This document shows positions 8,528-60,026 of a stretch of 64,000 bases of DNA, piece after piece. The notes beneath the pieces were generated by a model, which did no database searches, was not told the DNA's origin, and saw only the letters and a program-made list of their open reading frames with translations. Where the stretch lies: IMG/VR virus record IMGVR_UViG_3300018080_000019, positions 1 through 64,000 of that record. One strand, written 5' to 3'. A program made the translations under genes and the position numbers. Source of the DNA: a virus. Each line of letters opens with the position of its first letter. Within the stretch, counting starts at the first letter, position 1.

Positions 8528-8793
8528 TGGCTGGTCCAGGCACAGAACTCAGCACACTCCTACACCGTATGGGCATCAATGCCAAAGATGGTCAGTGCCG
8601 ATGCAAAGCCCACATCCGTGAGATGGATAAGAAGGGGTGTCACTGGTGCTCGAACAACATTGGAACAATCATAGACTGGCTGAAGACGGAAGCCACCCGT
8701 CGCAAGCTGGTATTCAATCGTATAATAGCTAGAAACCTTGTGAGGCTAGCTATTTGGAGGAGCCGGAAGAAAGCGGCTCAAGAACACCCTTAG
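8527..8793 (+). CDS. hypothetical Cys-rich small protein
   Basis: TAATG overlap. Contains CRCK..H....C..C residues. Confidence 0.4.
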   Translation: MAGPGTELSTLLHRMGINAKDGQCRCKAHIREMDKKGCHWCSNNIGTIIDWLKTEATRRKLVFNRIIARNLVRLAIWRSRKKAAQEHP

Positions 8794-8809
8794 TCCATTG
8801 GAGCAAGTT

Positions 8810-43675: not shown

Positions 43676-44158
43676 ATGAACCGTCACAACCGTCGTAGTA
43701 TTCTGGGGATGCTCTGTTCAATTGCCTTATCCCCTTTTCTCGTAAAACCAAAGACACAGGAGCCGAAGAAGCCTGAACACTATTCACCTGTGGAATTTTT
43801 CACTTGGGTTGATAATTATAAACCCTGGACAACTTCTTCCAAGTTCAATTGTCTTGAGTACGGTGGCCCTCCCAAGAACATGATCTTCCTGGATGGTGTT
43901 GACATTTCTAGCTATGCCATCCATCGAATGATTACGGGACAGTACGGCTGGGTTGAAGTCACTATTGGAGAGGATGGTTGGCCCTTAGAATACCACAACA
44001 ACGTAAGCAGGAAAAAGCCGAAGATTAAGAACGGTCTTCCCGAAACCAAGAGGCTTTATGGCCGCGTCGATTACGTTCGTGGTCCTTGCCATTCTTCTAA
44101 GCAACCCCGCGATAAATACGGCAGGTTCGTTTCTCGGGTATACGTTATTAGAAGCTAA
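43676..44158 (+). CDS. hypothetical exported protein (Tat/Sec-like signal)
   Basis: AAGGAG upstream. The N-terminus MNRHNRRSILGMLCSIALSPFLV resembles a twin-arginine or lipoprotein-type signal. Confidence 0.45.
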   Translation: MNRHNRRSILGMLCSIALSPFLVKPKTQEPKKPEHYSPVEFFTWVDNYKPWTTSSKFNCLEYGGPPKNMIFLDGVDISSYAIHRMITGQYGWVEVTIGEDGWPLEYHNNVSRKKPKIKNGLPETKRLYGRVDYVRGPCHSSKQPRDKYGRFVSRVYVIRS

Positions 44159-46014: not shown

Positions 46015-46563
46015 ATGCCCACCCCCGGCATTATCGGCACTCGTGCAAAAGTGCCTCCGGAAAGACAGCCCCTCCAAATAGCTTTGGACTGGGAAAAGTA
46101 TTTCCAGGAGTTTCTCAGGCACCACGGCGGAAACCCGATCCTACTCATGGACGAGGCCTTGGAAGCCCCTGCTCGGTGGCTGTTCCAGGACGGTTGGACG
46201 TACAATGCCAACGACTACGCTGGACCGGAGTGGCCCCCTCCCAAGGACCCCGATGCTCTAAATGCTTTGATCCGGCATTACTGGCTAAGCCGGTTGGAGA
46301 TCGTTGCAAGGGAGCTACGGTGGATCCATGAACGGATTGAAAAACTTGAAATGCTCCAGGAAGTAAGGAGTGTTCCACTACAAGCAAAATACAGCATCCT
46401 TTCAAGTATGCGAAATGAAGACGGTAGGGAATCCTTTCGAATGACCACCGAACGAGGCCCCGTCGATTTTGAGCTACTCAACGCTCGCAAGAAGGAGCTT
46501 GAGTGGGATGTTCAGAATTGTGAAAACCACTTGGAGGAGCAAGAAGGAGTGTCAAATGTTTAG
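46015..46563 (+). CDS. hypothetical protein
   Basis: GAGGAG upstream. Lies between terL and the portal. Confidence 0.5.
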   Translation: MPTPGIIGTRAKVPPERQPLQIALDWEKYFQEFLRHHGGNPILLMDEALEAPARWLFQDGWTYNANDYAGPEWPPPKDPDALNALIRHYWLSRLEIVARELRWIHERIEKLEMLQEVRSVPLQAKYSILSSMRNEDGRESFRMTTERGPVDFELLNARKKELEWDVQNCENHLEEQEGVSNV

Positions 46564-49108
46564 AAGCATTCCAGGGTCAGGGTTCAGCATCTACGGTGGT
46601 TTCCAAGACTACGCGATGAATCAGGAGAACAGAGCCCTACTACAGAACTCCATGACTTCGAGGTCTAGGCTGCTTAGCACGGTGCTGGATCCCCGCCGAG
46701 ACATTGACAAAGAATGTGGCTACCCTGAAACGGGTTCCTTGGACGTTTACAAGTTCAAGGAGTTATACACTCGAGAACCCATCGCTGCTCGAGTGGTCAA
46801 GGTCTTGCCTGAAGAGTGTTGGGCGACTACGCCTGAAGTCTTCGAGACGGAGGACCCAGAAGAGAGTACGGCCTTTGAAAAATCCTTCGACGAGCTAATT
46901 GCTTCGTTGCGTGGGGAGCATAGCTGGTATCAGGGGGAAGAGGGGAACCCGCTTTGGGAAGCACTAAAACGAGCCGACCAACTATCGGGCATCGGTTACT
47001 TCGGCGTATTGCTGATTGGGCTCGACGACGGCCAGCCGCTCAGCAGTCCAGTGAAGGGCCTCACTGAAAAGAACTCGATGCCTCAGGCAGAAAAGCCAAA
47101 GGCAGAAAAGCCGGAGGAGCCGGAGGAGTCGAAAAAGAACGGTAAACCTCTGCCAAAATCACTCCCTAAGGAAAAAACCAAGAACGCCTCCTACGAGAAG
47201 TACGAGTTGGTTTGCAACCAGGAGAAAACGTCTAACCGCAAGGTCCTGTTCTTACGGTCGTTCGACGAAGCCCTGGTCCACATTTCCCTTTACGAAACCA
47301 ATCCCACTTCGCCGAGATATGGAATGCCGGTCCAGTATAACATCATGTTCAACGACCCACAAGAGCGAAGCACCGTGGGGATGGGAGCACCCCTGCGGAC
47401 GCAGATCGTCCACTGGACTAGGATCGTCCATATAGCGGACAACCTCGACAGTAGTGAGATATTCGGCGTTCCCAGAATGCGTCCAGTTTACAACCGACTC
47501 TACGACTTGCGGAAGTTGTATAGTGGTGATGCCGAAATGTTCTGGCAAGGAGCCTTACCAGGACTCTCATTTGAAACGCATCCCCAGCTAGGTGGCGACG
47601 TCAACATCAGTGCCGAAGATACGCGTGATGCGGTTGAACGATATTACAACGGCCTCCAAAGGTTCTTCCTCACCAGTGGTCTTTCAATCAAGTCCCTCTC
47701 TCCACAAGTCTCAGACCCTACACCCCACATCAACGCTCAGATCGAAGCGATCTGCATTGAGCTAGGCATCCCCAAACGGATTTTCATGGGTTCAGAGCGA
47801 GGGGAACTGGCAAGCGGTCAAGACAGTGGTACATGGAACGACCGGCTCCGGGCAAGGCAGAACAAGTACCTCACTCCTCGAGTCATCGTACCCCTGATCG
47901 ATCGCCTGATCCTTGTAGGTGTTCTAACTCCACCCCAAGAAGGCTATTCTGTACGGTGGCCCGATTTGGATTCCATGAGCGATATGGAGCAAGCACAAGT
48001 CGCAGGAGCAACTACGGAAGCCGTTGCCAAGTATATCCAGGGACAGGTAGAGACGCTAATCCCACCTGAGTACTTCCTCGGGGACATTCTGGGCTTCGAT
48101 AAGTCTCAAGTCGAGGAAATCCTAGAGGCTGCTTTACAAGTCCAGGAAGAACAGCAAGCCGAAGAGGAAGCTGAACGTGAAGAGGCTCTAAAGCAACTTG
48201 AGCAACTGCCTCCAGGGCAGCAGCCTCCACCTCCAGGGCAGCAACCACCTGGACAACAGCCTCCTCCAGGCAAGCAGCCCCCTGGTCAACCTCCAGTACA
48301 ACAGCAACCTCCAGGCGTTCCGCCCCCTGGCTTGCCACCGAAGGGTAAGAAGCCACCGAAGATCATTCCTAAGGAAGATAAGGTGGCAAAGAACTACGAC
48401 ACGTTCCAACAGGACGTTGACGATGTGGCTAACAAGTTGGGGTTGACCCCCGAAGAGCGGGAGGAAATGGTCGAACGGTACACAAAGGAATATAGGATTG
48501 AAAACTACAGTCCCAATCAGCCTCGTGATTCAGATGGAAAATTTGGTTCAGGTGGAGGAGGGGGTGGTGGAAAGCTGACTAAGAAACAGCAAAAACGAGT
48601 CAAGTCCCTTATGGAGGATCTAGGCTTCAGCCGGGAGGACGCTGAAGAGATTGCCCTTATGCCAGATGAAGATGAACCGGGCGACAGGGGTGGTTCTCTC
48701 GAGGATAAGGACGAGGCCATCAACGAGGGGATCGAGGAATATAAATTTCCAACCACTCTATACCACGTAGTTGAAAGCCGTAAAATCGCCGACTCAATAA
48801 AGAAGGGTGGGATCAAGGCAAAGAAGGGGGGTAAGACTGGCACTTCCCGAGGAGCATACCTCAGCGACGATCCAACTGGGGTAATACAGGCAGGTGACTT
48901 TGATCTTGGTGATCTACACATTGTAGCAGTTGATACTAGAAAACTGAAGATGCGACTGGACCCGGAGTACTATCTTGACTATACAGATGGTAGCTCAGTT
49001 CAAAGAGCTCTAAAAGCCAAAGACGAATCGCACTATGTCTACAGTCCCAAAACTATCCCAGCTTCTGCTATCAAGTCTGTGAAGAAATTCAAACCACGAG
49101 GCAACTAG
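46556..49108 (+). CDS. portal protein (DUF1073-like) with PQ-rich linker, delimiter motif and extra C-terminal domain
   Basis: ATG 46556 (MFRSIPG) with GGAG upstream. ECGYPE...YKFKELYTREPIAARVVKVLPEECW is typical of this portal family. PPGQQPP repeats at 48207-48357, the motif at 48503-48571, then a 178-aa domain. Confidence 0.7.
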   Translation: MFRSIPGSGFSIYGGFQDYAMNQENRALLQNSMTSRSRLLSTVLDPRRDIDKECGYPETGSLDVYKFKELYTREPIAARVVKVLPEECWATTPEVFETEDPEESTAFEKSFDELIASLRGEHSWYQGEEGNPLWEALKRADQLSGIGYFGVLLIGLDDGQPLSSPVKGLTEKNSMPQAEKPKAEKPEEPEESKKNGKPLPKSLPKEKTKNASYEKYELVCNQEKTSNRKVLFLRSFDEALVHISLYETNPTSPRYGMPVQYNIMFNDPQERSTVGMGAPLRTQIVHWTRIVHIADNLDSSEIFGVPRMRPVYNRLYDLRKLYSGDAEMFWQGALPGLSFETHPQLGGDVNISAEDTRDAVERYYNGLQRFFLTSGLSIKSLSPQVSDPTPHINAQIEAICIELGIPKRIFMGSERGELASGQDSGTWNDRLRARQNKYLTPRVIVPLIDRLILVGVLTPPQEGYSVRWPDLDSMSDMEQAQVAGATTEAVAKYIQGQVETLIPPEYFLGDILGFDKSQVEEILEAALQVQEEQQAEEEAEREEALKQLEQLPPGQQPPPPGQQPPGQQPPPGKQPPGQPPVQQQPPGVPPPGLPPKGKKPPKIIPKEDKVAKNYDTFQQDVDDVANKLGLTPEEREEMVERYTKEYRIENYSPNQPRDSDGKFGSGGGGGGGKLTKKQQKRVKSLMEDLGFSREDAEEIALMPDEDEPGDRGGSLEDKDEAINEGIEEYKFPTTLYHVVESRKIADSIKKGGIKAKKGGKTGTSRGAYLSDDPTGVIQAGDFDLGDLHIVAVDTRKLKMRLDPEYYLDYTDGSSVQRALKAKDESHYVYSPKTIPASAIKSVKKFKPRGN
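48503..48571 (+). repeat. delimiter peptide motif copy 1 (portal)
   Basis: NYSPNQPRDSDGKFGSGGGGGGG. Confidence 0.85.
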
Positions 49109-49109
49109 A

Positions 49110-52100
49110 ATGCCTGATCTCCTTGAACAAATCGGCTTGCGGATCCTTCGCCGTAGGTACCTTTACTCTACAGGTCTCCGGGTGATCGCGGAGAACTACC
49201 ACCCCAATCAGCCTAGGGATAGTAGAGGCCGCTTCGGTAGTGGAGGAGGAGATGGAGGTGGAAAAAGGGGGGACCAACTGGAGGTGATGAACCCAGATCT
49301 ATTTTGGGAAGAACTGCCTCCGGCTCTCGATAAGAATAGGAAACAGGTTGAAGGGATGGTAGGTAAGAACCCGGAAATCAGAAGCACGATCGAAGTCTAT
49401 ACCAGTGATGGCTATGAAGTCTTTAACGCTCAACTCCGTGAGGGCAAACCCGACCCCAAGAAAGTTAAGGAAGTGGCAAGCGCTTTCCACATTTCCGAAA
49501 GTGAAATGCAAGGGATGGTTGATGAAGGCATACCTGCCTTAGACAAGATAACCAGTCTAGACCTCGACAAACCAATCACCACTTATCGCGGTGTAGATGA
49601 GCATACAACTAATGAAATTCTCAAAGCGGCTAAGAAGGGCAAGGGTGTGACTATTTCAGACGAAGCCTTTCAGTCTACGTCAATCAACCCTGAAGTGGCT
49701 GCGACTTTTGCTGCGAGAGGGGGATCAAATGTGATTATGGAGATCACAGCAAAGCGGGGAGCTTATCTTGAAACGATTTCATACACACCTGGAGATGGTG
49801 AATTTCTATTGCCTCGGAACAGTAAACTTCGTATCGATAGCGTCCATGAGGGTGTAAAGATGAAAATCCCCGAAGGTGTGGACGTTGAAAACCCGAATGC
49901 ACCTTGGTTCAAGAAAGACATTACTGTAATTAGAGCTACACAAGTTCCGGGCAAGAAAAAGGAGGTGGTTCCAAAGAAAAAGAAGTACAAGACGGTAAAG
50001 AAGAGGTCCACCAAAAACGTAGAGAGGAAGGACACTCGCCATAAGAGATTTGTTATTGACTACTTCATTCTTGAAGAGGGGGTCGAGAACTACAATCCCA
50101 ACCAGCCCAGAGATGCACGAGGCCGCTTCGGCTCGGGCGGTGGAGGCGGAGGTGGTTCTATGTCCCCCATGAATCACAAGCGTATGAGACGCTGGACCAA
50201 GGAGGACTATGAGCAGTATCCAGGGTGGGATGGAAGCACCGGACATGAGGCCAGCTACGGTGGAGCAATCTTCAATGACGAAGGCAAAATCCTCCTACGT
50301 GAGCCTAGTCACCATTTCGACGGCTATGTATGGACCCTTCCAAAAGGTCGTTGCAACGGTCCAGACGATAATCCCGTAGATACTGCTTTACGCGAAGTCG
50401 CAGAGGAGACTGGTCACAAGGGGCAAATCACCGGCCTTGTTCCTGGTAGGTTCGAGGGTGGCACTAGTCACATGAATCTGTTCGTTATGCAGAGCCGTGG
50501 CTACAATTCCAAGCTGCGAGACAAGGAAACGCACTCCACGAAGTGGGCTACCTACGAAGAGGCGATCGACTTGGTTGGGAAGACGAAGAACCCAATCGGT
50601 CGCCGTCGAGACTTGCAAGCCGTTCACGCCGCGTTCAAAGCACGTGACTCCCTAGTTAAGAACTACCACCCCAACCAACCGCGTGATAGTCGAGGTAGGT
50701 TTGGAAGTGGTGGTTCTGGTGGGGGCGGAGGGTTGGCAAGCATCGATGTAGACAAGCCCGAGCCTATCAACGCTACACTTCTTCATGGTGGCACAGACAA
50801 AGAGGGAGACCTAGTTACTTACTACACCGACGATCGTAGTGTGGCTGAAAGCTACGTCCAAATGTCAAACGATCGGTTTGGCGAAGGGGGTGCCGTCCAT
50901 GAAAAGCAAGTCTCCATAAAGAGCCCTGCTCCTAGAGAGGAAGTGCTCAAAGAGGCAAATCGTATTGGGATTGATGTGGAAAGCGACGGTTATACCCCTG
51001 CAAGTGTCTTCGACACTGAGCTATACGATCGAACAGATGTTAAGCGGTTAGTCGCAGGACTCAGGGATAAAGGCTATGATGGGGCCGTCTTACAAGACGT
51101 TCCTTATGGTGGAGAGGGAAGCCCCGTCAACGTTGCCATTGCTTTTTCAGGGAAGGTCAAGTCCAAGTACGATCTTCCCCCCTGGCTACGGAACGTTAGG
51201 AACTGGCACCCCTCCCAACCACGTGACTACCGTGGACGTTTTGGGAGTGGAGGGGGTGCCGGAGCGGGTTTCGTCTTACCCAATCCTAACGAAGTTGAAT
51301 TCGTTAAGAACCTTCCTGGCAGTACCCACCCAAAACTCGTGCGAGACAAGGACGGTAAGTTGTGGGTAATGAAGGAAGCCCTGACTGCTGAGAAAGTGAA
51401 GCGGCTTGAGAATGAGATCGATGCTGACAATGCTTACAGGGCACTCGGCGTAGACGTTCCTCCTAGTGGGGTAGTGCTGAACCCAGAACGAAGTGACAGG
51501 GCTCACAAGTTCAGCGAATACATAGACGGCGGTCAAACCTTAGATGATTGGAAGCATGGGAAAGACAAGGCCCAGATACAAGAGATGCACGACAAGATCG
51601 GGGAACACTTCGTAGCTGATGCAACCCTAGCCAACTGGGATGTCATTGGTTTGGAAAACGACAACATCCTAATCAAGGATGGTAAGCCCTACCGTATCGA
51701 CAACGGCGGAGCCCTGCTTTATCGGGCTCAAGGTGCTCCCAAGGGTTCCAAGTTTTCAGATCAGGTCATCGAGCTAGATACCCTTCGAGACAAGGGGAAG
51801 AACTACTCCTCCGGTACAGTGTTTGGAAATCTACCCCCAGACAAAATCAACCAACAGATCGTTGATATCTCGAAGAAGAGAGCGGCGGTCCTGGAGGCTG
51901 TTAGCAACCCTAAGACCCGTGAGAAGTTGAAGGCTCGCTTCAACGACTTGAAGAGCAAGGCAAAGGTGATCAAAAAAGAGCTGGCTCCAAAGGTCAAGGG
52001 TAAGATCACAAAGCAACCGACCAGTGGGAAGCCTATAAAGTCTTCTGGTGCCAAGAAGAAAGTCACTGCTGCTACGAAAGAGAAAGCCACGGGTGAAGGG

Positions 52101-53096
52101 GTTGTGTCTGGAGCGGCCTTCGGTACGGCAGTCGGTGTCGCTAGTTATCTCCAACAGAACAAAGGTAACTCCAACTTTACAAAGGTTCAGCTCGCTAAGG
52201 TCCAGGTTTACAATCCTAACGGTATTAGCGACGGGGTGCTGAACGTGCCGAAAGCGATGATGGCTAATCCCGCAAACCTCAAGCACCTACAGAAGATCCT
52301 TCCGGCTGGAACTGTTATCAAGCTCAGTGGGAAGAAAACGAGCAAATCTAAGCTTCCTTCAGCGGTTGCCAAACGCTACGGCATCACTGTTGACTATTCA
52401 ACCATCCAGTCAGGCACAAAGTCGGCCAAGGCAAAAGCTGCGAAGAAGAGCAAGACCCTACCGTCCCACTTCGTACAGGGTGTCCATACGGGAGGATACT
52501 ACAGTACTCCAAACAAAAGCGGGAAGGTGATTGGTGGCAGTCAGGCTGAGGTTAAGTTCAAGCACTCCCTCACTTATGATGAAAAGCACGCTATAGGGAG
52601 TTGGAAGGGTTCGGCCCGTAGCATCCGTAAGAACTACGTGGAAGCCAAGAAGGGTAAGGCTACTATGAGTCCTAAGACTAAGAATATTGTAAGTGCGATA
52701 GAAAAGGCCCCCGCCCACGAAGGGATTGCTTACCGTGGGATCCATAGTAGTGGCGGTCCTAAGCATAAGGATTATGCTCACAAGCAGATGGCAGCAATTG
52801 AGAAAGCTGGGATCGGGGGGACTTGGGTAGACGATGCTCCAACAGGGTTCAGTAAGAACGCTCAAACGGGTGCTTCCTTTTCCCATGGAGACTTGCTACT
52901 CAAAGTCAAAACCAGGGGTAAGAATATGCGGAGTATTGCTAACGTTGAGAACTTTGGTGGTGAAGCTGAAATGCTCGCTCGTCCAGGCACTAAGTTCCGC
53001 ATTGTCGGTATCCAAAAAGATGTTACCGTCAAGATCCAAGGAGCAGGTCATAAGAAGAAGCATGTCAAAATGCTCGTTGAAATGGAGGAAACGTAA
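49110..53096 (+). CDS. polyvalent virion protein: ART - Nudix - unknown - kinase-like - K-rich - ART
   Basis: 1328 aa. Four delimiter motifs. See the domain features and findings below. Confidence 0.8.
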   Translation: MPDLLEQIGLRILRRRYLYSTGLRVIAENYHPNQPRDSRGRFGSGGGDGGGKRGDQLEVMNPDLFWEELPPALDKNRKQVEGMVGKNPEIRSTIEVYTSDGYEVFNAQLREGKPDPKKVKEVASAFHISESEMQGMVDEGIPALDKITSLDLDKPITTYRGVDEHTTNEILKAAKKGKGVTISDEAFQSTSINPEVAATFAARGGSNVIMEITAKRGAYLETISYTPGDGEFLLPRNSKLRIDSVHEGVKMKIPEGVDVENPNAPWFKKDITVIRATQVPGKKKEVVPKKKKYKTVKKRSTKNVERKDTRHKRFVIDYFILEEGVENYNPNQPRDARGRFGSGGGGGGGSMSPMNHKRMRRWTKEDYEQYPGWDGSTGHEASYGGAIFNDEGKILLREPSHHFDGYVWTLPKGRCNGPDDNPVDTALREVAEETGHKGQITGLVPGRFEGGTSHMNLFVMQSRGYNSKLRDKETHSTKWATYEEAIDLVGKTKNPIGRRRDLQAVHAAFKARDSLVKNYHPNQPRDSRGRFGSGGSGGGGGLASIDVDKPEPINATLLHGGTDKEGDLVTYYTDDRSVAESYVQMSNDRFGEGGAVHEKQVSIKSPAPREEVLKEANRIGIDVESDGYTPASVFDTELYDRTDVKRLVAGLRDKGYDGAVLQDVPYGGEGSPVNVAIAFSGKVKSKYDLPPWLRNVRNWHPSQPRDYRGRFGSGGGAGAGFVLPNPNEVEFVKNLPGSTHPKLVRDKDGKLWVMKEALTAEKVKRLENEIDADNAYRALGVDVPPSGVVLNPERSDRAHKFSEYIDGGQTLDDWKHGKDKAQIQEMHDKIGEHFVADATLANWDVIGLENDNILIKDGKPYRIDNGGALLYRAQGAPKGSKFSDQVIELDTLRDKGKNYSSGTVFGNLPPDKINQQIVDISKKRAAVLEAVSNPKTREKLKARFNDLKSKAKVIKKELAPKVKGKITKQPTSGKPIKSSGAKKKVTAATKEKATGEGVVSGAAFGTAVGVASYLQQNKGNSNFTKVQLAKVQVYNPNGISDGVLNVPKAMMANPANLKHLQKILPAGTVIKLSGKKTSKSKLPSAVAKRYGITVDYSTIQSGTKSAKAKAAKKSKTLPSHFVQGVHTGGYYSTPNKSGKVIGGSQAEVKFKHSLTYDEKHAIGSWKGSARSIRKNYVEAKKGKATMSPKTKNIVSAIEKAPAHEGIAYRGIHSSGGPKHKDYAHKQMAAIEKAGIGGTWVDDAPTGFSKNAQTGASFSHGDLLLKVKTRGKNMRSIANVENFGGEAEMLARPGTKFRIVGIQKDVTVKIQGAGHKKKHVKMLVEMEET
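49194..49262 (+). repeat. delimiter peptide motif copy 2
   Basis: NYHPNQPRDSRGRFGSGGGDGGG. Confidence 0.85.
49368..49850 (+). other. ADP-ribosyltransferase domain 1 (R-S-E type)
   Basis: YTSDGYEVFNAQLREG, TYRGV (49584-49592), AFQSTS (49671-49682) and GDGEFLLPR (Glu at 49800). Confidence 0.65.
50088..50156 (+). repeat. delimiter peptide motif copy 3
   Basis: NYNPNQPRDARGRFGSGGGGGGG. Confidence 0.85.
50157..50660 (+). other. Nudix hydrolase domain
   Basis: The Nudix box is GRCNGPDDNPVDTALREVAEETGH (about 50345-50416), fitting G-x5-E-x7-REUxEExGU. Confidence 0.75.
50661..50732 (+). repeat. delimiter peptide motif copy 4
   Basis: NYHPNQPRDSRGRFGSGGSGGGGG. Confidence 0.85.
51201..51269 (+). 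repeat. delimiter peptide motif copy 5
   Basis: NWHPSQPRDYRGRFGSGGGAGAG. Confidence 0.8.
51270..51810 (+). other. atypical kinase-like domain
   Basis: KLWVMKE is a candidate ATP-binding Lys. LANWDVIGLENDNILIKDGKPYRIDNGG is a D-x4-N catalytic-loop plus IDxG pattern, resembling PI3/4-kinase-like or atypical protein kinases. Confidence 0.4.
52570..53093 (+). other. ADP-ribosyltransferase domain 2 (R-S-E type)
   Basis: IAYRGI, TGFSKN and FGGEAEMLARPGTKFRIVG (ExE). Confidence 0.6.
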
Positions 53097-54439
53097 TGGG
53101 CAGACCTAACTACAGCGAAGGGCACATGCGAGAGGCTACCTTTGAGGAGCAGATGCAATATGCTACACTCACTGATGCTGAAGGCAATGTGATCCGCCCA
53201 GAGGACATCTCCTATGGAGAATTGTTAGACTGGCTTGATGAGAACGACCTGTTGGATATGACGGGCGTTCCTAAGGAAGTTGTAGCTACAGGTGAGCTCT
53301 ACAGGGGCACAGAAAATTATCACCCCAATCAGCCTAGAGATAGCCGTGGACGTTTTGGGTCTGGTGGGGGAGGGGGTGGAGGTTCCTTGAGTACGAAGGA
53401 GGGGCTCGCCGATTATGTATCTAAGAACAAAGGCAAAGCTAAGTTCACAGATTTACAACTCGCTAAGCTCGAAGTCTATAATCCTAACGGACTTAAAGGG
53501 GGTGTGGTCAATGTGCCAAAAGCGATGTTGAAGAACCCCAAGAACCGTAAGCAGTTAGAAGCTATTTTGCCAGAAGGAACCAAAATCAAGCTGAGTGGTA
53601 AGAAGGTCAGTAAGTCACAGATGTCCCCGGAGTTACGTAAGAAATACAACCTCGAGGGAAAGCCCGACGTGCCAAAAGTAGTTCAACCGAAGAAGGTGTC
53701 AAAGAAAGGGGGTGTAGATAAAGGAGCATCAACGAAGGGTGGGGTGGGTGACAACCGTACTTTGAGTAGACAAACCAAGGATACTCCAGTCAGCCCAGCT
53801 ATGATGGATAGTGCCGAGAATACGGAGTGGGCTTGTGATAACGAACCAGGAATGGCAGAGGCTGTTGGGTTCTATACAGAAGCTGGATATGACATAGTCA
53901 ACGATGGTTTGAGGACTGGAGACTGGGATCTAAGTGTGTACGGCTCTGATACAATAGAAGACATTGAGATGATGTACGACGCACCCCACGGTAAAGTGAA
54001 GTCTTGGATAAAGAAAGAAGTTGTTCATAAGCTAGATGATCTAACCTCCACAGACCTGGAGGGAGAGGGAGCCACAGTCTACCGTGGATTGGGGTCTCAT
54101 ACTGGTAAGAAGATCCTGGCTCAAGCAGAAGCTGGTGGTCACCCGGTTATAGTTGACAAAGCCTTCCAATCGACTTCTACTGATCCTGATACAGCAGCAG
54201 CGTTTTCAACTGGGACAAATATCGTGATGCAGATCACAGCAAAGCGAGGAGCATATCTCGAAGAAGTAAGTAGTAGTTCGGGCGAGTACGAATTTCTCAT
54301 GCCCCGAAAAACGAAACTCCGTGTTGACGGTGTTGATCACAATGTAACGTTGAAGACCCAAAAGTATAAGGCCGAAGACGATACGTACGAGACCGGATAT
54401 AAGAAACTGACCGTCATAAGGGCTACCCAAGTAATCTAG
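53096..54439 (+). CDS. virion-module protein: leader - delimiter motif - K-rich module - ADP-ribosyltransferase
   Basis: TAATG overlap. The ART (about 53851-54436) has FYTEAGYDIVNDGLRTG, VYRGLG, AFQSTS and GEYEFLMPR. It is a paralogue of ART domain 1. Confidence 0.75.
   Translation: MGRPNYSEGHMREATFEEQMQYATLTDAEGNVIRPEDISYGELLDWLDENDLLDMTGVPKEVVATGELYRGTENYHPNQPRDSRGRFGSGGGGGGGSLSTKEGLADYVSKNKGKAKFTDLQLAKLEVYNPNGLKGGVVNVPKAMLKNPKNRKQLEAILPEGTKIKLSGKKVSKSQMSPELRKKYNLEGKPDVPKVVQPKKVSKKGGVDKGASTKGGVGDNRTLSRQTKDTPVSPAMMDSAENTEWACDNEPGMAEAVGFYTEAGYDIVNDGLRTGDWDLSVYGSDTIEDIEMMYDAPHGKVKSWIKKEVVHKLDDLTSTDLEGEGATVYRGLGSHTGKKILAQAEAGGHPVIVDKAFQSTSTDPDTAAAFSTGTNIVMQITAKRGAYLEEVSSSSGEYEFLMPRKTKLRVDGVDHNVTLKTQKYKAEDDTYETGYKKLTVIRATQVI
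53315..53383 (+). repeat. delimiter peptide motif copy 6
   Basis: NYHPNQPRDSRGRFGSGGGGGGG. Confidence 0.85.
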
Positions 54440-54450
54440 GAGGACCTGCT

Positions 54451-54657
54451 ATGGCCCAAGATAAGTTCAGCGGTGAGTATGAAATTCTCCCAGACGACTA
54501 CGTAGAACGGGATGAGGACGGGTCAGTAGTGTGGGCAGGTCCGGCCGCTGACGTTACTGACCCAGACGTAGCTGACTGGATGGAAGAAGCGGGCTACTTC
54601 GACGAAGACGAGCTGGAAGAGACTGTAGCCACGGGCGAACTCTACGAAGAGGAATAG
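54451..54657 (+). CDS. small acidic protein, paralogue of the N-terminal leader of ORF 53096
   Basis: AGGAGG upstream. Ends ...ETVATGELYEEE, compare ...EVVATGELYRGTE at the same position of ORF 53096. Confidence 0.45.
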   Translation: MAQDKFSGEYEILPDDYVERDEDGSVVWAGPAADVTDPDVADWMEEAGYFDEDELEETVATGELYEEE

Positions 54658-54658
54658 C

Positions 54659-54970
54659 ATGAACCACATCCACCTTTGCCAAAAGATACGGTTCGACTAC
54701 GAACGTGGGGCTACCCTTGCTGACTTGTGTAAGAAGTACGGCCTCCCTTACAAGAAGCTTCGGCTGATGATCATAGAAGCAGGGGGCTCTATCCGCACTA
54801 AGCAAGAAATCGGTGATATGCAAGCCGCACCCATCCCACCACCGGAGGAGTATGAACGTCGCAAGGAAGAGGTCAGAAAAGCTGCCCTTCGGGCGAAGCG
54901 AAATCAAAGCGGTGTTCCATCACGAGGACCAGGAGTTACGGCAACTCGCGTCGTCACGTTCCCATTCTAG
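54659..54970 (+). CDS. putative HTH DNA-binding protein
   Basis: ERGATLADLCKKYGLPYKKLRLMI is HTH-like. Confidence 0.4.
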   Translation: MNHIHLCQKIRFDYERGATLADLCKKYGLPYKKLRLMIIEAGGSIRTKQEIGDMQAAPIPPPEEYERRKEEVRKAALRAKRNQSGVPSRGPGVTATRVVTFPF

Positions 54971-54981
54971 GAGGTTTGGGC

Positions 54982-55311
54982 ATGGACTTGAAAGACAGGA
55001 TAGTCTATCTGTACCAGATTGGTCGTAGCTTGGAGAAGGTCGCAGAACTGGTTGGACGTTCTGACGTTACCGTGCGAGCCGTTCTACGTAAGAGGAAAAT
55101 CCCTCTAAGAAAGCTGCCCGAATTCGTTGCTTTCTACTGTCCTACCCCTTGGGAGATTGAACGGCAGAAGGCTCTTATCAAAAAGAAGAAGCTACGTCTC
55201 AAGAAGGCCAGTGAAGGTGGACGGCCTCGCAAGTACGGTGCGATCCTAGACAACATCGTTTCCACCCATAACGTTTCAGAGTGCTTACCAGAACTTCTAG
55301 GGGAATACTGA
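54982..55311 (+). CDS. putative HTH DNA-binding protein
   Basis: ATG 54982 with AGGAGG 7 nt upstream; the track start 54976 is TTG. GRSLEKVAELVGRSDVTVRAVLRK is HTH-like. Confidence 0.45.
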   Translation: MDLKDRIVYLYQIGRSLEKVAELVGRSDVTVRAVLRKRKIPLRKLPEFVAFYCPTPWEIERQKALIKKKKLRLKKASEGGRPRKYGAILDNIVSTHNVSECLPELLGEY

Positions 55312-56552
55312 TGCCGACAGTAAAGCCCGGTGAATCTCAGAGCGACTATATGAGCCGTTGCGTTCCCTACGTAATGGCAGAAGCTGGGACCAAGAGCAAG
55401 TCACACGCTGTCGCTAAGTGTTTGGGTATGTACCGACAGGCTACCCAGAACGCTAGACGTCAACGTCCAAGTCCCTTACGACTCGATCCCAGTCGCACGA
55501 CCAGTCTGCGTCGGGCCTTTATGACGGAGATCAGTAAACGGTTGACCCTTGTCAAACGTGCCTTGCGAAAGCTGGTGGCTGAAGAGGACGTTTTCGGTTT
55601 GGCCCTTACTACCCTAAGAAACTCGAGCGTGAGAAATACACGGTGGGCCTTCCACACAACTCCCCAGCAAGTCCAACTCTTCGAAGCATGGATAAAGAAG
55701 CTACTAGCTGCGAAGCTGCTCAACGGTCACACGTTGCTCGAGGAGTTGGGTGAGGGGAAGTCTCTACCAGAGATGCTCCTCAGCGACCTTTACTGGGAAA
55801 AGTATGCTGCTTTGGGGTATGCTCAAGGGGCTGGACGCGTCTTTGATGAGACGAAGGCAAAAGCTTATGCAGGGGTGAAGTGGACTAAAGAGCAGCAAGC
55901 CTTTTACCGTGGAACAAAACAACAATTCCTTCAAAGTGCCTTCGGCCAGCCAGTAGCAAAGGAGAAACTCCAACTACTGGCGGGTCGTGTCTTCACAGAA
56001 CTCAAGGGCATCACTGACCGCATGGCACAGGTGATTACCCGAGAACTCGTAGAAGGGATGGCTCGAGGTGAAGGTCCTCATGCGATGGCCCGTCGTATGG
56101 TGAAGCAGGGTATCGGTACGAAGAAGCGGGGCATCCAGTCCAGGGCCTTGACTATCGCCCGGACCGAAATCATTCGAGCCCACGCAGAGGGGCAGTTGGA
56201 TGCCTTCGAGCAGATGGGCGTTGAGGAAATAGGGGTAGCCGTCGAATGGAGCACTAGTGGCTTTGAAGTATGCCCTGCTTGTCGAGCGATGGAAGGAGTT
56301 GTGCTTACCACGAAAGAAGCTAGGGGCCTCATCCCAAGGCACCCGAACTGTCGTTGTGCCTTTACCCCTGCTAACGTGGGAGAATCCACTAAGGGGCAGA
56401 TTCGCTCGAAGGCCAAAATCCAGGAGGCTATCGAACGGTCCATCGCTAGAGTGGGGGCCAAGAAGGACAGTCTCGCCCAAAAGAAAAAGAAGACTACTTG
56501 GGTAGGGGCTGACCGTGTAGTAAAGAAGAACCGGCCGAAGGGCATAGTCTGA
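55311..56552 (+). CDS. MuF / SPP1 gp7-like minor head (head morphogenesis) protein
   Basis: TGATG coupling at 55309-55313. ALTIARTEIIRAHAEGQLDAF...VCPACRAMEGVVL...IPRHPNCRCAF is the MuF signature. Confidence 0.8.
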   Translation: MPTVKPGESQSDYMSRCVPYVMAEAGTKSKSHAVAKCLGMYRQATQNARRQRPSPLRLDPSRTTSLRRAFMTEISKRLTLVKRALRKLVAEEDVFGLALTTLRNSSVRNTRWAFHTTPQQVQLFEAWIKKLLAAKLLNGHTLLEELGEGKSLPEMLLSDLYWEKYAALGYAQGAGRVFDETKAKAYAGVKWTKEQQAFYRGTKQQFLQSAFGQPVAKEKLQLLAGRVFTELKGITDRMAQVITRELVEGMARGEGPHAMARRMVKQGIGTKKRGIQSRALTIARTEIIRAHAEGQLDAFEQMGVEEIGVAVEWSTSGFEVCPACRAMEGVVLTTKEARGLIPRHPNCRCAFTPANVGESTKGQIRSKAKIQEAIERSIARVGAKKDSLAQKKKKTTWVGADRVVKKNRPKGIV

Positions 56553-56812
56553 TGAAGCGTAAGGGAAGCCCTACGGAAGAGTCCATTCTGAACGTCTTGT
56601 CTGACGGTGAATTCCATTCCCGCGAAGAGTTGTATACCTGTCTGCCCGACACTATATATTTAGATGATGCAGCCAGATGCAACGCTCTCAAACAACACAT
56701 CTACCGCCTCCGCAAAGGGCTGGAACCAAAGGGTCACACGATCGAGACACGGTTCTTCGGTAAACAATACAGCTACAGATGGGTAAGGTTGCTAGTAAAC
56801 CCCTGTAAATAG
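56552..56812 (+). CDS. stand-alone OmpR/PhoB-type winged-helix (Trans_reg_C-like) protein
   Basis: ILNVLSDGEFHSREELYTCL...ALKQHIYRLRKGLEPKGHTIETRFFGKQYSYRW follows the effector-domain pattern (hIsrLRkKL....I.Tv.g.GY.h). Confidence 0.5.
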   Translation: MKRKGSPTEESILNVLSDGEFHSREELYTCLPDTIYLDDAARCNALKQHIYRLRKGLEPKGHTIETRFFGKQYSYRWVRLLVNPCK

Positions 56813-56833
56813 GGTAAACCCCTGTAAATAGGG
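56796..56833 (+). repeat. perfect tandem 19-bp direct repeat TAAACCCCTGTAAATAGGG x2
   Basis: Copies at 56796-56814 and 56815-56833. They overlap the stop codon of the winged-helix gene. Confidence 0.85.
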
Positions 56834-56850
56834 CACAAACGGCCCCTGGT

Positions 56851-56893
56851 GGCTTGTTTGGGCCTTGTTTGGCCCTTGTTTGGCCCTTGTTGC
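56851..56893 (+). repeat. about 4 tandem copies of GGCC(C)TTGTTT (period 10-11)
   Basis: ggcttgtttg ggccttgtttg gcccttgtttg gcccttgttg. Lies upstream of the ATG at 56955. Confidence 0.75.
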
Positions 56894-56954
56894 CCCCTGT
56901 AACACCTTGCAAAAAACTACCCCCCTTTGCCCCCGTTTGCCGTAAGCTGGGGGC

Positions 56955-59900
56955 ATGGAACGCATCCCGCTTACGCTCAACTACTCAACAGGGCACGTCC
57001 GCCGCGAACAGCTAAACGGGCGGGAGTATCTGGTGGCCCCTGTGACTCTCATTGTTCCAGGTGTTCTCAACGGTAGTCGCGGGCCGCTGCTTTATCCTCA
57101 GGAAGAAGTGGCCCGGAACCCCGAAGACTGGAACAAGATTCCGCTCTTGGTCTACCATCCAAAACACCCCCATCGCACGGGTAGTGATGCGTTTGATGAT
57201 CAGGGGGTGGGGTTCCTTAAGAACGCAAGGGCTAACGGTAAGCTGACCGCCGATGCCTGGTTCGACCTCGAACGGGTTCGTAACATTGATGCTCGTGTGC
57301 TTCTAGCTTTGGAAAACGAGCGGCCGATGGAAATCAGTACGGGGCTTGAAGTGTCTGACGAGCCCGCTGCTAACGGTGCTCACTTCAACGGTACCCCTTA
57401 TATAAGTATCGCCCGTAACTACCGACCTGACCATCTTGCGATCCTGCCTGATCAGGTTGGTGCTTGCTCTCTAACCGATGGGTGTGGTCTTATGCTCAAC
57501 AAACGATCTAAACGATCTACCCGTAACTATTCCTCCTCACAACCAAGAGATGCTCAAGGAAGATTTGGTTCTGGTGGGAGTGGTGGTAGCGGTGGGAGTG
57601 GGGGTGGTGGGGGTGGACCAAAAGCAGAGGCGGAGAAAGCGATTGCTACCCTGGAAGCAAAAGTTGGGGAACTCAAACAGTCCTTTAGTGAAGCAAAAGC
57701 GTATCGCTTAGTGGGGGAAAGAGCATCAGAGAAGGCTTGGAAGTCTCAGAGTATAACAGACCATAAAGCAGCTGCGGAAATTCACAGGCAAGGAGCTAAC
57801 AAAGCCAGCTTTGAAATCTATGAGACCAAATCAAAGAAGAAGCTTGCAGCGTTACACGGGGCTGTTGGTGAACATACACGGAAAATGAAGGCCCATGAAC
57901 GGGAAGTTAGGGAGGGAATAAAGGACAGCAAGAACAAGAGTGACTACACTGGTGACTTTTGGAGGGAATCTAGTGTCGTTAACTACTCTCCAAATCAGCC
58001 TCGAGACGCAAGGGGTAGGTTCGGTTCCGGAGGAGGCGGCGGAGGAGGGGGAGCTGCTGGTTTGGACCGTCTTCGAAAGAAGAAAGGTTTGGGGACTACT
58101 TCTAGCTACAGAGACGGGCTCAAAAAGTCTCGTACTGCTTGGATTCTATCTGGTAAGACTGGCAGTTCAAAAGAGGCTAAGGCTGCTATGAAAGCGGCTA
58201 AGGATGGTCAGCACGCTAAAGCGGCGGAACTCCACAAGAAAATAGCAGCGTCACATGAAAAAGCTGCCAGTAAATCACAACCCGGTCCTCTTCTTGGGAG
58301 TGAACTGAAAGCTGCTGAGGCCCATCGTGCCGCTGCTAGTGCTCAGAAACACTTAGCTGAACTTGCAGAGAACTACTCTCCAAGTCAACCACGCGACAGC
58401 CGTGGAAGGTTTGGTTCTGGGGGTGGTGGAGGGGGTGGTGGTTCAAGCAAGTCCATCTCCAAGCCTAAAGCTCTTCCAGCTACGGCTGATGCGGTTGCTC
58501 TACTGGTGGGTGGTACCGTGGAGAGTACGAAGCGAACTAGGTGGAAGGACAAGAAGGGTACGGTAAGCAGTACCTTCCACAAGATCAAAGTTCCTGCCAG
58601 CAAGTCAGGCTCTGCTGCAATACAGGCCCATGCTAGACTCGCCGAGCGGAAGGACATTTCCGTCACTAGCCCCCGACCTGTAGGGAGGAGCGATTGGCGG
58701 GTGAGCGTTCGCTCGAAGGATGCTTCTAAGCATATCCACTTCACATTCGGGGGTAAGCAGGCCCTCAACCGTAAGAAGACCAAGAACTACAATCCAGGAC
58801 AGCCGAGAGATTCTCGAGGTAGATTCGGGTCTGGGGGTGGTGCTGGAGGTTCAATGGCACCGCATACGGGCGATAGTGGAAGTGGTGCAAGCGGTGGAGG
58901 TACTTCAAAGAAGAGTAAGGGTAAGGACACTTCTTATAAGCCCCCTGAGATTCCCAAAGGTAGCTGGAGTGGTCCTGCCAAGACTAAGGATCTTCGCAGC
59001 AGTATCCTGAAAAAAGTTGGGGCTTCTGGTCGAAGTGCGGCTCAACACCGTGGCAAGCTGAAAATTGGCGGTGAGGAAGTGGATTCCCTTCCTTCTGAAG
59101 CGTTCAAAGGTGGGACCACCTTGATTGGTGGTCCAAATCTCAAAAAAGCCGTGAGTAAGTACGTTAGGAAGAGGGGATTCGAGTCTAAGGGGAAAGGTGT
59201 TTGGGAAGACAAGCACAAGAATCAGGTCAGAATTCACACTACGACTCTTGGGTGGGGGAAACGGAAAAGAAAAGAGACTTGGGTAGCCCTGCGTGGAGGG
59301 GCTACTAAGGGGGGCGACTTAACGAAGAACAAGTTCAATCACTCTCACGAACAGTACCACAACCACATAGGAGGTTTTAGTATGGAACTGTCCACAGAGG
59401 AAAGGGTTGAGATCATCGAGGATCTCATCGAAAATAGTTGCTGTTGGGAAGAAGAGGACCGAGCCACCCTGAACGGGTTGGAAGACAATTCCCTCGGTCG
59501 CTTAGCACAGCAACTCGACATCGATCGGGCAAACAACGCTACGATCGAACAGCAGGAAGCTGTCATCAACGCGATGCCTGAAGCCTTACGAAAGGCCAAA
59601 GGCGTCAAGGATGATGAAGAGGAAGAGGAGGAAGTAGCGGTTGACAACGAGTTGTCCGAGGAGGAGTGGCTCAGCAATGCTCCTCCGAGCATCCGCGAAG
59701 CGGTCACCTACGCTCGGAACGCTCAGGCGGCTCAGCGACAAGCCACCTTCAACAAGCTTTTGGAAGGGGCGTCCAAGGAGACCGTGAAAAAGGTCAGTCC
59801 AGCCTTGAACCGTCTCAGCCAAGAGCAGCTTGAAGCGATCGCTCTCCTGGTGGGCAACCGTAAGGCTACTCCTAAGCAGACCGACTCCCAACCGGGGGTC

Positions 59901-60026
59901 CTGGTCCCCGCACAGGGAGCCCCCGTGTACTACGGGAGCCCTGGTGGGGCAGCCACCGTGGACAACAGCGAGGACATGGAGGATCAGAACGAAATCCTCC
60001 CGCTGCCGACACCGTTGACCGCTTAA
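56955..60026 (+). CDS. prohead protease-like (DUF2213-type) N-domain - four delimited internal modules - scaffold-like C-domain
   Basis: N-terminus has LLYPQEEVARNPEDWNKIPLLVYHP...NYRPDHLAILP. Four delimiter motifs. The C-terminal 214 aa are acidic and helical, as in scaffolding proteins. Lies immediately upstream of the capsid genes. Confidence 0.6.
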   Translation: MERIPLTLNYSTGHVRREQLNGREYLVAPVTLIVPGVLNGSRGPLLYPQEEVARNPEDWNKIPLLVYHPKHPHRTGSDAFDDQGVGFLKNARANGKLTADAWFDLERVRNIDARVLLALENERPMEISTGLEVSDEPAANGAHFNGTPYISIARNYRPDHLAILPDQVGACSLTDGCGLMLNKRSKRSTRNYSSSQPRDAQGRFGSGGSGGSGGSGGGGGGPKAEAEKAIATLEAKVGELKQSFSEAKAYRLVGERASEKAWKSQSITDHKAAAEIHRQGANKASFEIYETKSKKKLAALHGAVGEHTRKMKAHEREVREGIKDSKNKSDYTGDFWRESSVVNYSPNQPRDARGRFGSGGGGGGGGAAGLDRLRKKKGLGTTSSYRDGLKKSRTAWILSGKTGSSKEAKAAMKAAKDGQHAKAAELHKKIAASHEKAASKSQPGPLLGSELKAAEAHRAAASAQKHLAELAENYSPSQPRDSRGRFGSGGGGGGGGSSKSISKPKALPATADAVALLVGGTVESTKRTRWKDKKGTVSSTFHKIKVPASKSGSAAIQAHARLAERKDISVTSPRPVGRSDWRVSVRSKDASKHIHFTFGGKQALNRKKTKNYNPGQPRDSRGRFGSGGGAGGSMAPHTGDSGSGASGGGTSKKSKGKDTSYKPPEIPKGSWSGPAKTKDLRSSILKKVGASGRSAAQHRGKLKIGGEEVDSLPSEAFKGGTTLIGGPNLKKAVSKYVRKRGFESKGKGVWEDKHKNQVRIHTTTLGWGKRKRKETWVALRGGATKGGDLTKNKFNHSHEQYHNHIGGFSMELSTEERVEIIEDLIENSCCWEEEDRATLNGLEDNSLGRLAQQLDIDRANNATIEQQEAVINAMPEALRKAKGVKDDEEEEEEVAVDNELSEEEWLSNAPPSIREAVTYARNAQAAQRQATFNKLLEGASKETVKKVSPALNRLSQEQLEAIALLVGNRKATPKQTDSQPGVLVPAQGAPVYYGSPGGAATVDNSEDMEDQNEILPLPTPLTA
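57525..57617 (+). repeat. delimiter peptide motif copy 7
   Basis: NYSSSQPRDAQGRFGSGGSGGSGGSGGGGGG. Confidence 0.8.
57981..58052 (+). repeat. delimiter peptide motif copy 8
   Basis: NYSPNQPRDARGRFGSGGGGGGGG. Confidence 0.85.
58371..58442 (+). repeat. delimiter peptide motif copy 9
   Basis: NYSPSQPRDSRGRFGSGGGGGGGG. Confidence 0.85.
58785..58850 (+). repeat. delimiter peptide motif copy 10
   Basis: NYNPGQPRDSRGRFGSGGGAGG. Confidence 0.8.
59382..60026 (+). CDS. possible nested in-frame scaffolding protein
   Basis: AGGAGG (59369-59374) lies 7 nt upstream of an in-frame ATG at 59382 (MELSTEERVEIIEDL...). Confidence 0.4.
   Translation: MELSTEERVEIIEDLIENSCCWEEEDRATLNGLEDNSLGRLAQQLDIDRANNATIEQQEAVINAMPEALRKAKGVKDDEEEEEEVAVDNELSEEEWLSNAPPSIREAVTYARNAQAAQRQATFNKLLEGASKETVKKVSPALNRLSQEQLEAIALLVGNRKATPKQTDSQPGVLVPAQGAPVYYGSPGGAATVDNSEDMEDQNEILPLPTPLTA

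Follow-up and report, generated by a model that had tools for sequence, protein, structure and literature searches.

The question raised by this locus is why one short peptide recurs ten times among the head proteins of a tailed phage. The locus lies in IMG/VR virus record IMGVR_UViG_3300018080_000019, of which positions 1 to 64,000 were analysed (this whole stretch of 64,000 nucleotides is called the window, and all coordinates of this phage refer to it); a tailed-phage head module occupies 44-64 kb of the window. A six-frame scan of the window found ten copies of the motif N-[YW]-x-x-x-Q-P-R-D-x-x-G-[RK]-F-G-S, followed by a Gly-rich stretch, all of them in frame and on the plus strand. Our tentative answer, drawn by analogy with the capsid-targeting sequence (CTS) of phage T4, is that the motif, called the tag in the following, may be a disordered address-and-release signal which is cut by a prohead protease of the DUF2213 family. 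We regard this reading as a serious possibility, though somewhat short of an even chance.

The copies are found in four open reading frames (ORFs) on the plus strand. Copy 1 (NYSPNQPRDSDGKFGSGGGGGGG; 48503..48571) joins the portal core and its P/Q-rich linker (46469..48502) to a C-terminal module of 165 amino acids (aa), for which no family match is given. ORF 49110 (49110..53096) encodes a cargo polyprotein of 1328 aa, in which copy 2 (49194..49262) lies between a 28-aa leader and an ADP-ribosyltransferase (ART) module, copy 3 (50088..50159) between this ART and a Nudix module, copy 4 (50661..50732) between the Nudix and a weakly ART-PolyVal-like module, and copy 5, the NW variant (51201..51269), ahead of a 233-aa module without family match. 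Copy 6 (53315..53386) follows a 73-aa acidic leader (isoelectric point, pI, 4.1) in the 447-aa cargo protein of ORF 53096 (53096..54439) and precedes a repeat module and an ART. The remaining four copies are found in the 1023-aa protein of ORF 56955 (56955-60026): copy 7 (57525..57617) immediately after the protease domain, copy 8 (57981..58061) after a basic helical-hairpin module (helices 222-263 and 270-325; pI 9.6), copy 9 (58371..58448) with basic modules on either side, and copy 10 (58785..58853) ahead of the last basic module, which continues into an acidic scaffold-like C-terminal part.

The first Asn codons, at the first position of each of these ranges, are exactly those given in an initial annotation of the window, which had also placed the copies at module boundaries. 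This placement is consistent with the domain matches of ORF 49110 (ADPrib_exo_Tox at aa 88-248, NUDIX at aa 381-488, ART-PolyVal with an E-value of 0.0045, and a C-terminal ART) and of ORF 53096 (a C-terminal ADPrib_exo_Tox at aa 255-424). The description of module 4 of ORF 49110 as kinase-like has no family support in the domain scans. The count of ten holds for intact copies; one further copy, which is degenerate and has no Gly tail (KQPRDKYGRFVSRVY; SKQPRDKYGRFVSRVYVIRS), had been missed at the C-terminal end of ORF 43676-44158 (44096..44158, plus strand).

Including the Gly-rich tail, each of the ten copies is 23-31 aa long, and N, Q-P-R-D, G and F-G-S-G-G are invariant in all ten. A degenerate DNA pattern for Q-P-R-D-x-x-G-[RK]-F-G had 10 matches in the window, against 0.00 expected from 100 dinucleotide-preserving shuffles. 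Over the 17-codon core the copies are 83% identical in protein and 65% in DNA, different codons are used in 63% of the codon pairs for identical residues, and the longest DNA run common to two copies is 17 nucleotides. The six P-R-D codon triplets named in the initial annotation were all found among the copies. As the codons differ between copies and the synonymous differences are saturated, selection acts on the peptide, as had been argued there; a recent DNA duplication as the source of the copies is ruled out by the same codon divergence. The tag copies tested were predicted by AlphaFold2 to be disordered with a flexible spacer after them, with predicted local distance difference test (pLDDT) scores of 33-51; copy 7 is predicted coil at pLDDT 42-51.

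A profile of the ten copies was searched against 1.84 billion representative proteins, a search across phage and metagenome proteins that had been proposed with the initial annotation. It matched 802 proteins (cluster representatives) at E ≤ 1e-3 and 114 at E ≤ 1e-10; many of the matches are 1000-3000 aa long with 2-10 copies. The consensus over 493 instances, of which 486 are distinct, is [VL]-x-K-Y-[SND]-P-[DSN]-Q-P-R-D-[ED]-x-G-R-[WF]-[TGAS]-S-G-G-G, with Q in 88%, the P before R in 81%, the R after G in 84% and W or F in 99% of the instances; R, D and G were prescribed by the search expression. Among the distinct instances, nine positions are near-invariant.

The median distance between successive copies is 248 aa. 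In half of the proteins a copy lies no more than 60 aa from the N-terminus, the shortest leaders being 5 aa, and in 95% of the proteins at least 128 aa remain after the last copy (5th percentile 128 aa). A copy 40 aa or less from the C-terminus was seen in only 3 of about 150 proteins, and very C-terminal copies are found in P0037 and in ORF 43676 of this phage. The N-terminal copies are conserved to the same degree as the internal ones. Since they separate nothing and are yet equally conserved, the tag is more than a separator; since they are fully conserved and the copy in Nocardia phage P3.1 lies 5 aa from the start of its protein, the tag is to be assigned to the module after it.

In a pattern scan of bacteria with one genome per species, the motif was found at at least 120 loci, and those listed belong to Alphaproteobacteria, Actinobacteria, Clostridia, Cyanobacteria, Planctomycetota, Chloroflexota, Patescibacteria and Myxococcota. 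Viral contigs were scanned as well and contained at least 116 motif-bearing stretches. A tblastn search of cultured phages with the consensus 22-mer, a method insensitive to short peptides, had a single match, the Nocardia phage P3.1 protein QSL67859 (L135, 5989-6699), which is a very basic protein of 237 aa beginning with MARRKFNPRQPRDLRGRW. QSL67859 is annotated as a 'capsid maturation protease' and resembles an internal protein rather than a protease. A word-indexed protein search with a 40-aa motif alignment returned one weak match, swamped by poly-Gly candidates. These scans found no Pfam or NCBIfam family covering the motif, and only phrog_38358 (function unassigned) matches it. No description of the motif strings was found in the literature searched, and an account outside that literature is possible.

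A PDB sequence search with two motif profiles found no solved structure containing the motif. The sole PDB sequence resembling it is chain Af of 9rku, a 454-aa protein of the baseplate core of phage 7-7-1 (PMC12796354), with SQPRDASGRFAYSGG at residues 82-96; its score is at chance level (E 0.06-1) and it was rejected as a member. Three identities for the motif itself were likewise rejected. A DNA-binding RGG-like box is ruled out by inspection, the core being approximately neutral and the Asp invariant. Self-cleavage by a Ser or Thr nucleophile after W/F does not agree with this position being Gly or Ala in 46% of the copies. A generic low-complexity linker, which the initial annotation had allowed for, is ruled out by the strong association of the motif with virion-module proteins.

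This association is seen in both the carriers and the cargo of the motif. The Pfam domains in the 34 top multi-copy proteins are ART (10), GNAT (7), MuF (5), portals (3) and PARP (3), in addition to Acb1, 2H/LigT, SprT, HNH, Tpt1, LPD1 and DUF2213. Among 119 genomic motif ORFs from the loci listed there are 21 portals of four families, 8 MuF proteins and 2 Peptidase_S78 proteins, and many ORFs of this set have toxin domains, namely ART, PBECR1/2, restriction-endonuclease-fold toxins, Ntox50, EndoU, deaminase and Acb1. The carriers are head-interior proteins, namely portals (four families), MuF, Peptidase_S78, DUF2213 and one HK97 capsid fusion, and the tag is the sole conserved element at the carrier-effector junctions. 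The cargo consists of effectors, among them ART, acetyltransferases (GNAT), PBECR, nucleases, restriction-endonuclease-fold toxins, Acb1 and LigT. At 20 sampled viral loci the neighbouring genes encode terminases, portals of four families, several capsid families, and cement and minor capsid proteins. Capsid families at other motif loci are PF05065, PF09950, Mu gpT and phrog_13692. A check for the lambda-type S49 protease found, at one genomic locus, an S49-like gene at a distance of 4.5 kb and, at one viral locus, a lambda-type portal. The initial annotation had seen a dedicated system in the tenfold array, and the motif does recur as a system in many phages.

Five metagenomic contigs have terminase, portal, MuF, DUF2213, decoration and capsid genes in common with this phage, and among close relatives the number and position of the tags as well as the modules change fast. 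In L011, L001/L002 and L004 the cargo lies inside the MuF protein, in the order MuF N-segment, tag, ART, tag, GNAT-like module (by eye) and MuF core; in L007 the tag is placed after the MuF core. L001/L002 have a portal-tag-module fusion as well, L011 has a minimal protease-tag-scaffold arrangement, and in L005 a tag and module are found upstream of the protease. Unrelated loci show a similar arrangement with other protease-like families. The L008 protein begins with an N-terminal domain matching head-maturation-protease families (phrog_21715/3270), which is followed by four tag-delimited modules. The combination of a protease-like domain with tag-delimited modules arose twice, with DUF2213 here and with the phrog_21715/3270 type in L008. 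In L010 the tag is found at residues 9-27 of a fusion that consists of a helical module, an S78-like signature (GWSSGT, by eye), a scaffold part and an HK97 capsid protein. DUF2213 is present in six of the first eleven related loci and a match to a head-maturation-protease family in four; in the eleventh, L010, the S78-like signature was recognised by eye alone.

Besides phage head modules, the motif is found in chromosomal genes. Of 25 randomly sampled genomic loci, about two thirds have no phage hallmark, and the neighbours there are HrcA, IMPDH, glutaminase and LysR genes. The families at these loci include one of a Nitrospirillum/Azospirillum type (NDNLAKYSPDQPRDWHGRW) and one of an Afipia type. 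In most pairs their N-terminal parts share 75-95% identity, with about 50% for one divergent member, and the parts after the motif are unrelated, with at least four C-terminal types in the Nitrospirillum type and at least three in the Afipia type; by eye, these include zincin (HExxH) and JAB-like domains. Neither type had a Pfam match. Neither secretion-system nor phage genes were seen within 8 kb of these genes, which are followed by small unassigned ORFs. From their sequences, the chromosomal families look like polymorphic toxins in architecture, with the motif exactly at the swap point, and the mechanism behind the motif may therefore not be capsid-specific. Alphaproteobacterial families of this kind were seen at loci L015, L018, L026, L031, L046, L053, L070, L085, L104, L116, L118, L132 and L134, and further at L021, L033, L056 and L107; at times two such genes lie within 8 kb, beside housekeeping genes.

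The candidate for a protease acting on the tag is the N-terminal domain of ORF 56955 (aa 1-190; 56955..57524, plus strand), for which the initial annotation had suggested a protease-like nature. The domain matches DUF2213 just below the threshold (E 3e-4, 21 bits against a cut-off of 22) and also phrog_760 (function unassigned). Its AlphaFold2 model has a pLDDT above 90 over aa 16-180, and the top 13 PDB matches of this model by Foldseek are all capsid maturation proteases, with T4 gp21 followed by the assemblins of cytomegalovirus, herpes simplex and Epstein-Barr viruses. The match to T4 gp21 (5jbl) has a probability of 0.97-1.00 and a template modelling (TM) score of 0.46-0.58 at an E-value of only 4e-3, and the other matches have weaker E-values. 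H68, S128 and H160 are invariant in 63 DUF2213-domain sequences, from which we infer them as candidate catalytic residues. Sequence comparison with the curated protease families S77, S78 and S21 found no membership for aa 1-190, DUF2213 alone being matched, and a PDB sequence search with the domain found no match. A function for DUF2213 was not described in the literature searched. In cultured phages, DUF2213 homologues have the portal or MuF gene on one side and the decoration and capsid genes on the other, as in ES18 (gp7), phiLM21, Brevundimonas phage StAshley and halovirus Hardycor1, and many homologues are free-standing proteins of 200-270 aa. On the fold model and the conserved residues, aa 1-190 of ORF 56955 are probably an assemblin-fold serine prohead protease. 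The first tag adjoins this putative protease, and three further tags delimit four modules (pI 9.6-11.3), which are basic like the T4 internal proteins.

In our tentative reading, the tag would be a portable element consisting of about 13 conserved residues and a Gly/Ser-rich spacer, placed ahead of each module that is taken into the head for delivery. The modules tagged in this phage would be one on the portal, five in the two cargo proteins and the four basic ones in ORF 56955. The carriers (portal, protease-scaffold and polyproteins) would take these modules into the procapsid, inside which the tag would be recognised. The assemblin-fold protease (56955-57524) would then cut at or beside the tag; the portal and the scaffold would be freed, and the cargo, by now separate proteins, would exit with the DNA. 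A cut would be needed because effectors fused to the portal, the capsid protein or the scaffold would be undeliverable uncut. With such a cut needed, and with a tag which is disordered and more than a cut site, a reading of the T4-CTS type is favoured; it suggests that the tag may both dock and be cut.

Several points weigh against this reading. Packaging, recognition of the tag, its cleavage and the position of the cut are steps that we infer. AlphaFold2 models of the protease with one and with two tag copies gave the copies as low-confidence coil that does not dock, which is weak evidence as it was read from pLDDT and secondary structure only. The capsid protein of this phage has no tag copy. 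Outside the first eleven loci, DUF2213 was found by Pfam at 5 of the 20 sampled viral loci, and narrow local profiles found some protease at 14 of the 46 loci with a length of 10 kb or more; as the local protease and MuF profiles are less sensitive than Pfam, the co-occurrence counts from them are lower bounds. The tag is carried by only 4 of 120 DUF2213 homologues, and the head-module regions examined in ES18, phiLM21, StAshley and Hardycor1, which have the same protease type, contain no motif. The core QPRDxxGR[WF] is near-invariant over Alphaproteobacteria, Actinobacteria, Clostridia, Cyanobacteria, Planctomycetota, Chloroflexota and Patescibacteria, and it is constant across several portal, capsid and protease families, although protease specificities and capsid docking pockets usually drift. 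In the chromosomal toxin-like proteins it lies at the junction of constant and variable parts with no phage genes in view. This near-invariance across phyla and families, together with the use outside phages, is the main difficulty and suggests a universal reader. It is possible, if doubtful, that one conserved reader, either a feature of the assemblin fold or a ubiquitous bacterial factor, recognises the tag as a universal, carrier-independent address for delivered effectors. If this were true, any protein with the 13-residue tag would be loaded into heads and released in the recipient, across phyla, and the tagged chromosomal toxin genes would share that route.

The conservation of the tag bears on the alternatives as well. 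Its approximately 13 conserved residues go beyond the needs of most prohead-protease sites, as would be expected of an uncleaved docking peptide that binds a conserved procapsid partner such as the protease, MuF or the scaffold core; the polyproteins would then stay intact and multiple tags would provide avidity. N-terminal copies with leaders of 5-20 aa, which separate nothing, agree with such docking, as do the few copies at the extreme C-terminus (P0037, ORF 43676) and the presence of MuF in all nine of the first related loci spanning its position. An uncut peptide would, however, leave the effectors on portals (21 of the 119 genomic motif ORFs listed) or on the capsid protein undeliverable, and it would require a partner that does not change although portal, capsid and protease families do. 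The motif is also found in non-phage toxin genes, and the two copies modelled with AlphaFold2 show no docking on the protease. We consider pure docking unlikely. We give a similarly low probability to a junction read by a conserved bacterial factor (a protease, chaperone or isomerase of the host or recipient), by which effectors would be freed or activated after delivery or during production. Staphylococcal phage 80alpha, whose head proteins are cleaved by the host protease Prp, provides a precedent. A universal partner would fit the near-invariance over at least seven phyla, the independence of the motif from portal, capsid and protease family, and its location at the junction of chromosomal toxin-like families, whose C-terminal parts are of at least four unrelated kinds and whose neighbours are glutaminase, LysR, IMPDH and HrcA genes. 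Against it, no candidate factor was found, and four of the copies lie in the protease-scaffold protein, for which delivery is unexpected, though the intervening modules look like cargo; a capsid process would account at least equally well for the strong enrichment in head modules.

Two further explanations need no dedicated reader or protease. The initial annotation had included flexible joints among its hypotheses, and a passive hinge or shuffling junction, that is a flexible, fold-insulating linker which eases module swaps and has no specific reader, would explain the Gly/Ser-rich tail and the predicted disorder. The quick turnover of modules, tag number and tag position among close relatives and the location at the polymorphic-toxin swap point point the same way. 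What such a hinge leaves unexplained is the tag itself: nine near-invariant positions over 486 distinct instances are more than a hinge requires, the N-terminal copies are fully conserved, and, as the codons differ freely, the DNA is not kept for recombination. We therefore judge the hinge very improbable. A separation during translation, which would turn one ORF into several proteins without a protease as the 2A peptides of eukaryotic viruses do, is suggested by analogy only, in that a short conserved peptide under peptide-level selection punctuates a viral polyprotein. Copies 5-20 aa from the N-terminus cannot fill the ribosomal exit tunnel and would yield a useless product, an N-terminus has no need of a separator, and we know of no bacterial arrest or skipping peptide that resembles the tag. 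It can be practically dismissed.

The T4-CTS-type reading rests on comparison with a well-described system. In T4, N-terminal propeptides of 10-19 aa target the internal proteins and the ART Alt to the prohead core and are removed by gp21 (PMC9026906). Like the CTS, the tag precedes unrelated proteins, the T4 cargo also consisting of an ART and basic internal proteins (PMC9026906), and a prohead protease, here of predicted assemblin fold, is encoded in the same module. The two have no sequence similarity, as the T4 signal comprises about 10 residues ending in L/I-x-E, which is absent from the tag consensus. Furthermore, the CTS is restricted to T4-like phages, whereas the tag spans many phyla and head types and is also repeated within polyproteins and found on portal, MuF, protease and capsid fusions. 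Targeting and removal by gp21 are established for T4 (PMC9026906), whereas for the tag both are proposals.

A second likeness is to the phage-type polyvalent proteins and the MuF- or portal-fused toxins, which are multidomain effectors in late or virion regions (PMC5512222, PMC3482391, PMC5576092). ART, PBECR, 2H, GNAT and LPD domains are common to this class and the motif proteins, and ORF 49110, which lies between the portal and MuF genes and combines several effector domains in a single polypeptide, shows a trait of polyvalent proteins. Zincin-like or papain-like peptidase domains were proposed for the processing of such proteins (PMC5512222, PMC3482391, PMC5576092). Unlike in the polyvalent proteins of PMC5512222, no zincin domain was detected in the window proteins, and the library scans matched no peptidase family in ORF 49110 or ORF 53096. 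PMC5512222, PMC3482391 and PMC5576092 make no mention of the tag.

Polymorphic toxins have their own motifs at the pre-toxin junction, such as VENN of CdiA, DPxGL of Rhs, and PT-TG. The tag resembles these in being a short conserved peptide where a constant delivery part meets interchangeable toxin domains (PMC3482391). It differs from them in sequence, in having up to 10 repeats per protein and in its possible N-terminal position; moreover, it is found mostly on phage head proteins, and no associated autoproteolytic domain was seen.

The prohead-protease sites of giant phages consist of three residues ending in Glu. These sites are clade-specific, whereas the tag is a 13-residue peptide that is constant across phyla. 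In SPN3US and phiKZ, many head and ejection proteins have a common protease recognition motif and are cut in maturation (PMC7411985, PMC5694885). By analogy with the known systems, the motif may be described as a capsid-targeting and processing signal, or as a pre-toxin junction motif, of unusual distribution and conservation.

The initial annotation had also compared the motif with encapsulin cargo-loading peptides. Like these, the tag is a short disordered peptide with a Gly-rich linker which could address cargo into an HK97-fold shell. Encapsulin cargo-loading peptides typically lie at the C-terminus and bind to a pocket that is specific to the lineage, whereas the tag is N-terminal to its cargo and occurs with at least four capsid-protein families, and the encapsulin analogy is weakened by both differences. 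In addition, the capsid protein of this phage, which had been called encapsulin-like, has only a sub-threshold match to encap_f1 (24 bits against a cut-off of 100) and is assigned to DUF6260 by Pfam.

How tailed phages beyond T4 choose, load and release their injected proteins is a largely open field, and the injected proteins include anti-defence enzymes, ADP-ribosyltransferases for host takeover, and toxins. The tag offers an experimental handle on cargo loading, through mutation, reporter fusion or a search for its reader. It also gives a sequence rule by which giant polyvalent proteins can be split into modules and virion-delivered effectors can be spotted in metagenomes, and it is a possible portable signal for engineered protein-delivering phages. 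As chromosomal toxin genes contain it too, the delivery of phage cargo and that of bacterial toxins may be linked.

The remaining genes of the head module are arranged around these proteins. The large terminase gene (44356-45960) is followed by the portal gene (Phage_portal_3 / phrog_146; ORF 46469-49108, plus strand). A Pro/Gln-rich low-complexity linker (PPGQQPPPPGQQPPGQQPPPGKQPPGQPPVQQQPPGVPPPGLPP; 48270-48420, portal aa ~600-650) connects the portal core to the tagged module. In ORF 49110, the last part consists of a Lys-rich stretch, the repeat module and a second ART without a further tag. The C-terminal third of ORF 49110 (52143-53093) and most of ORF 53096 (53408-54436) are apparently paralogous; by eye, both have a repeat module of about 85 aa (FTKVQLAKVQVYNPNG and FTDLQLAKLEVYNPNG) followed by an ART, with no tag separating the two. 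An exact look-up of ORF 53096 in public assemblies found no record. Downstream lie two small ORFs (54659-54970 and 54976-55311), a MuF-family minor head protein which has no tag in this phage (55281..56552, plus strand), a small ORF of 86 aa (56552-56812), ORF 56955, a small protein at the position of a decoration protein (60088-60564) and the tag-free major capsid protein (DUF6260 / phrog_771; 60620..61864, plus strand). The three small ORFs inside the module have a helix-turn-helix or winged-helix appearance by eye, helix-turn-helix in the case of the first two. All five related contigs keep the 86-aa ORF between the MuF and protease genes; the cultured relatives examined do not have it.

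ORF 43676-44158 (160 aa), which has the degenerate copy, has the probable small terminase gene (42808-43509) on one side and the large terminase gene on the other, and its N-terminus resembles a signal or lipoprotein sequence. As the related contigs contain no homologue of it, the ORF appears to be an inserted moron.

The acidic scaffold-like C-terminal part of ORF 56955 (59325..60026, plus strand; pI 4.5) ends in EILPLPTPLTA. This ending belongs to a second short motif, in which acidic residues are followed by [ILVY]-L-P-[LMIV]-P-x-[IM]-[ND]-[WFY] (QNEILPLPTPLTA at the end of ORF 56955; 59985-60023). The second motif recurs, at times twice, in the tails of 11 of 120 DUF2213 homologues, at a density about 24 times that in the polyvalent-protein set; its holders include P0157, P0158, P0164, P0166, P0175, P0178, P0186 and P0244. 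It could be a capsid- or portal-binding tail of the protease/scaffold.

In the conserved N-terminal arm of the capsid protein (aa 32-42; 60713-60745), all five members of the clade have [RQ]-P-Y-x-D-x-x-G-x-[RK]. With one residue more, this RPYxDxxGxR sequence loosely resembles the tag core Q-P-R-D-x-x-G-R-F, which may be a coincidence or a relic or mimic of the recognition element of the tag.

Variants of the tag are found in L011, the closest relative. The ORF at 8095-10806 contains a form with a one-residue deletion, QPRD-RGRW (aa 388-398), and the first half of the tag alone (INAYNPE…; aa 558-565) where the cargo rejoins the MuF core; the ORF at 11132-12238 contains a QPKD form downstream of the protease (aa 203-220). 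In L001 (3319-7695, aa ~855-1117), and also in L002, the MuF protein has an intein-like insertion with the borders …PRHPN-AVFAG…VVSN-CRC…, which splits a conserved zinc motif between HPN and CRC. The exact position of the insertion within this motif suggests that the MuF site is functionally critical.

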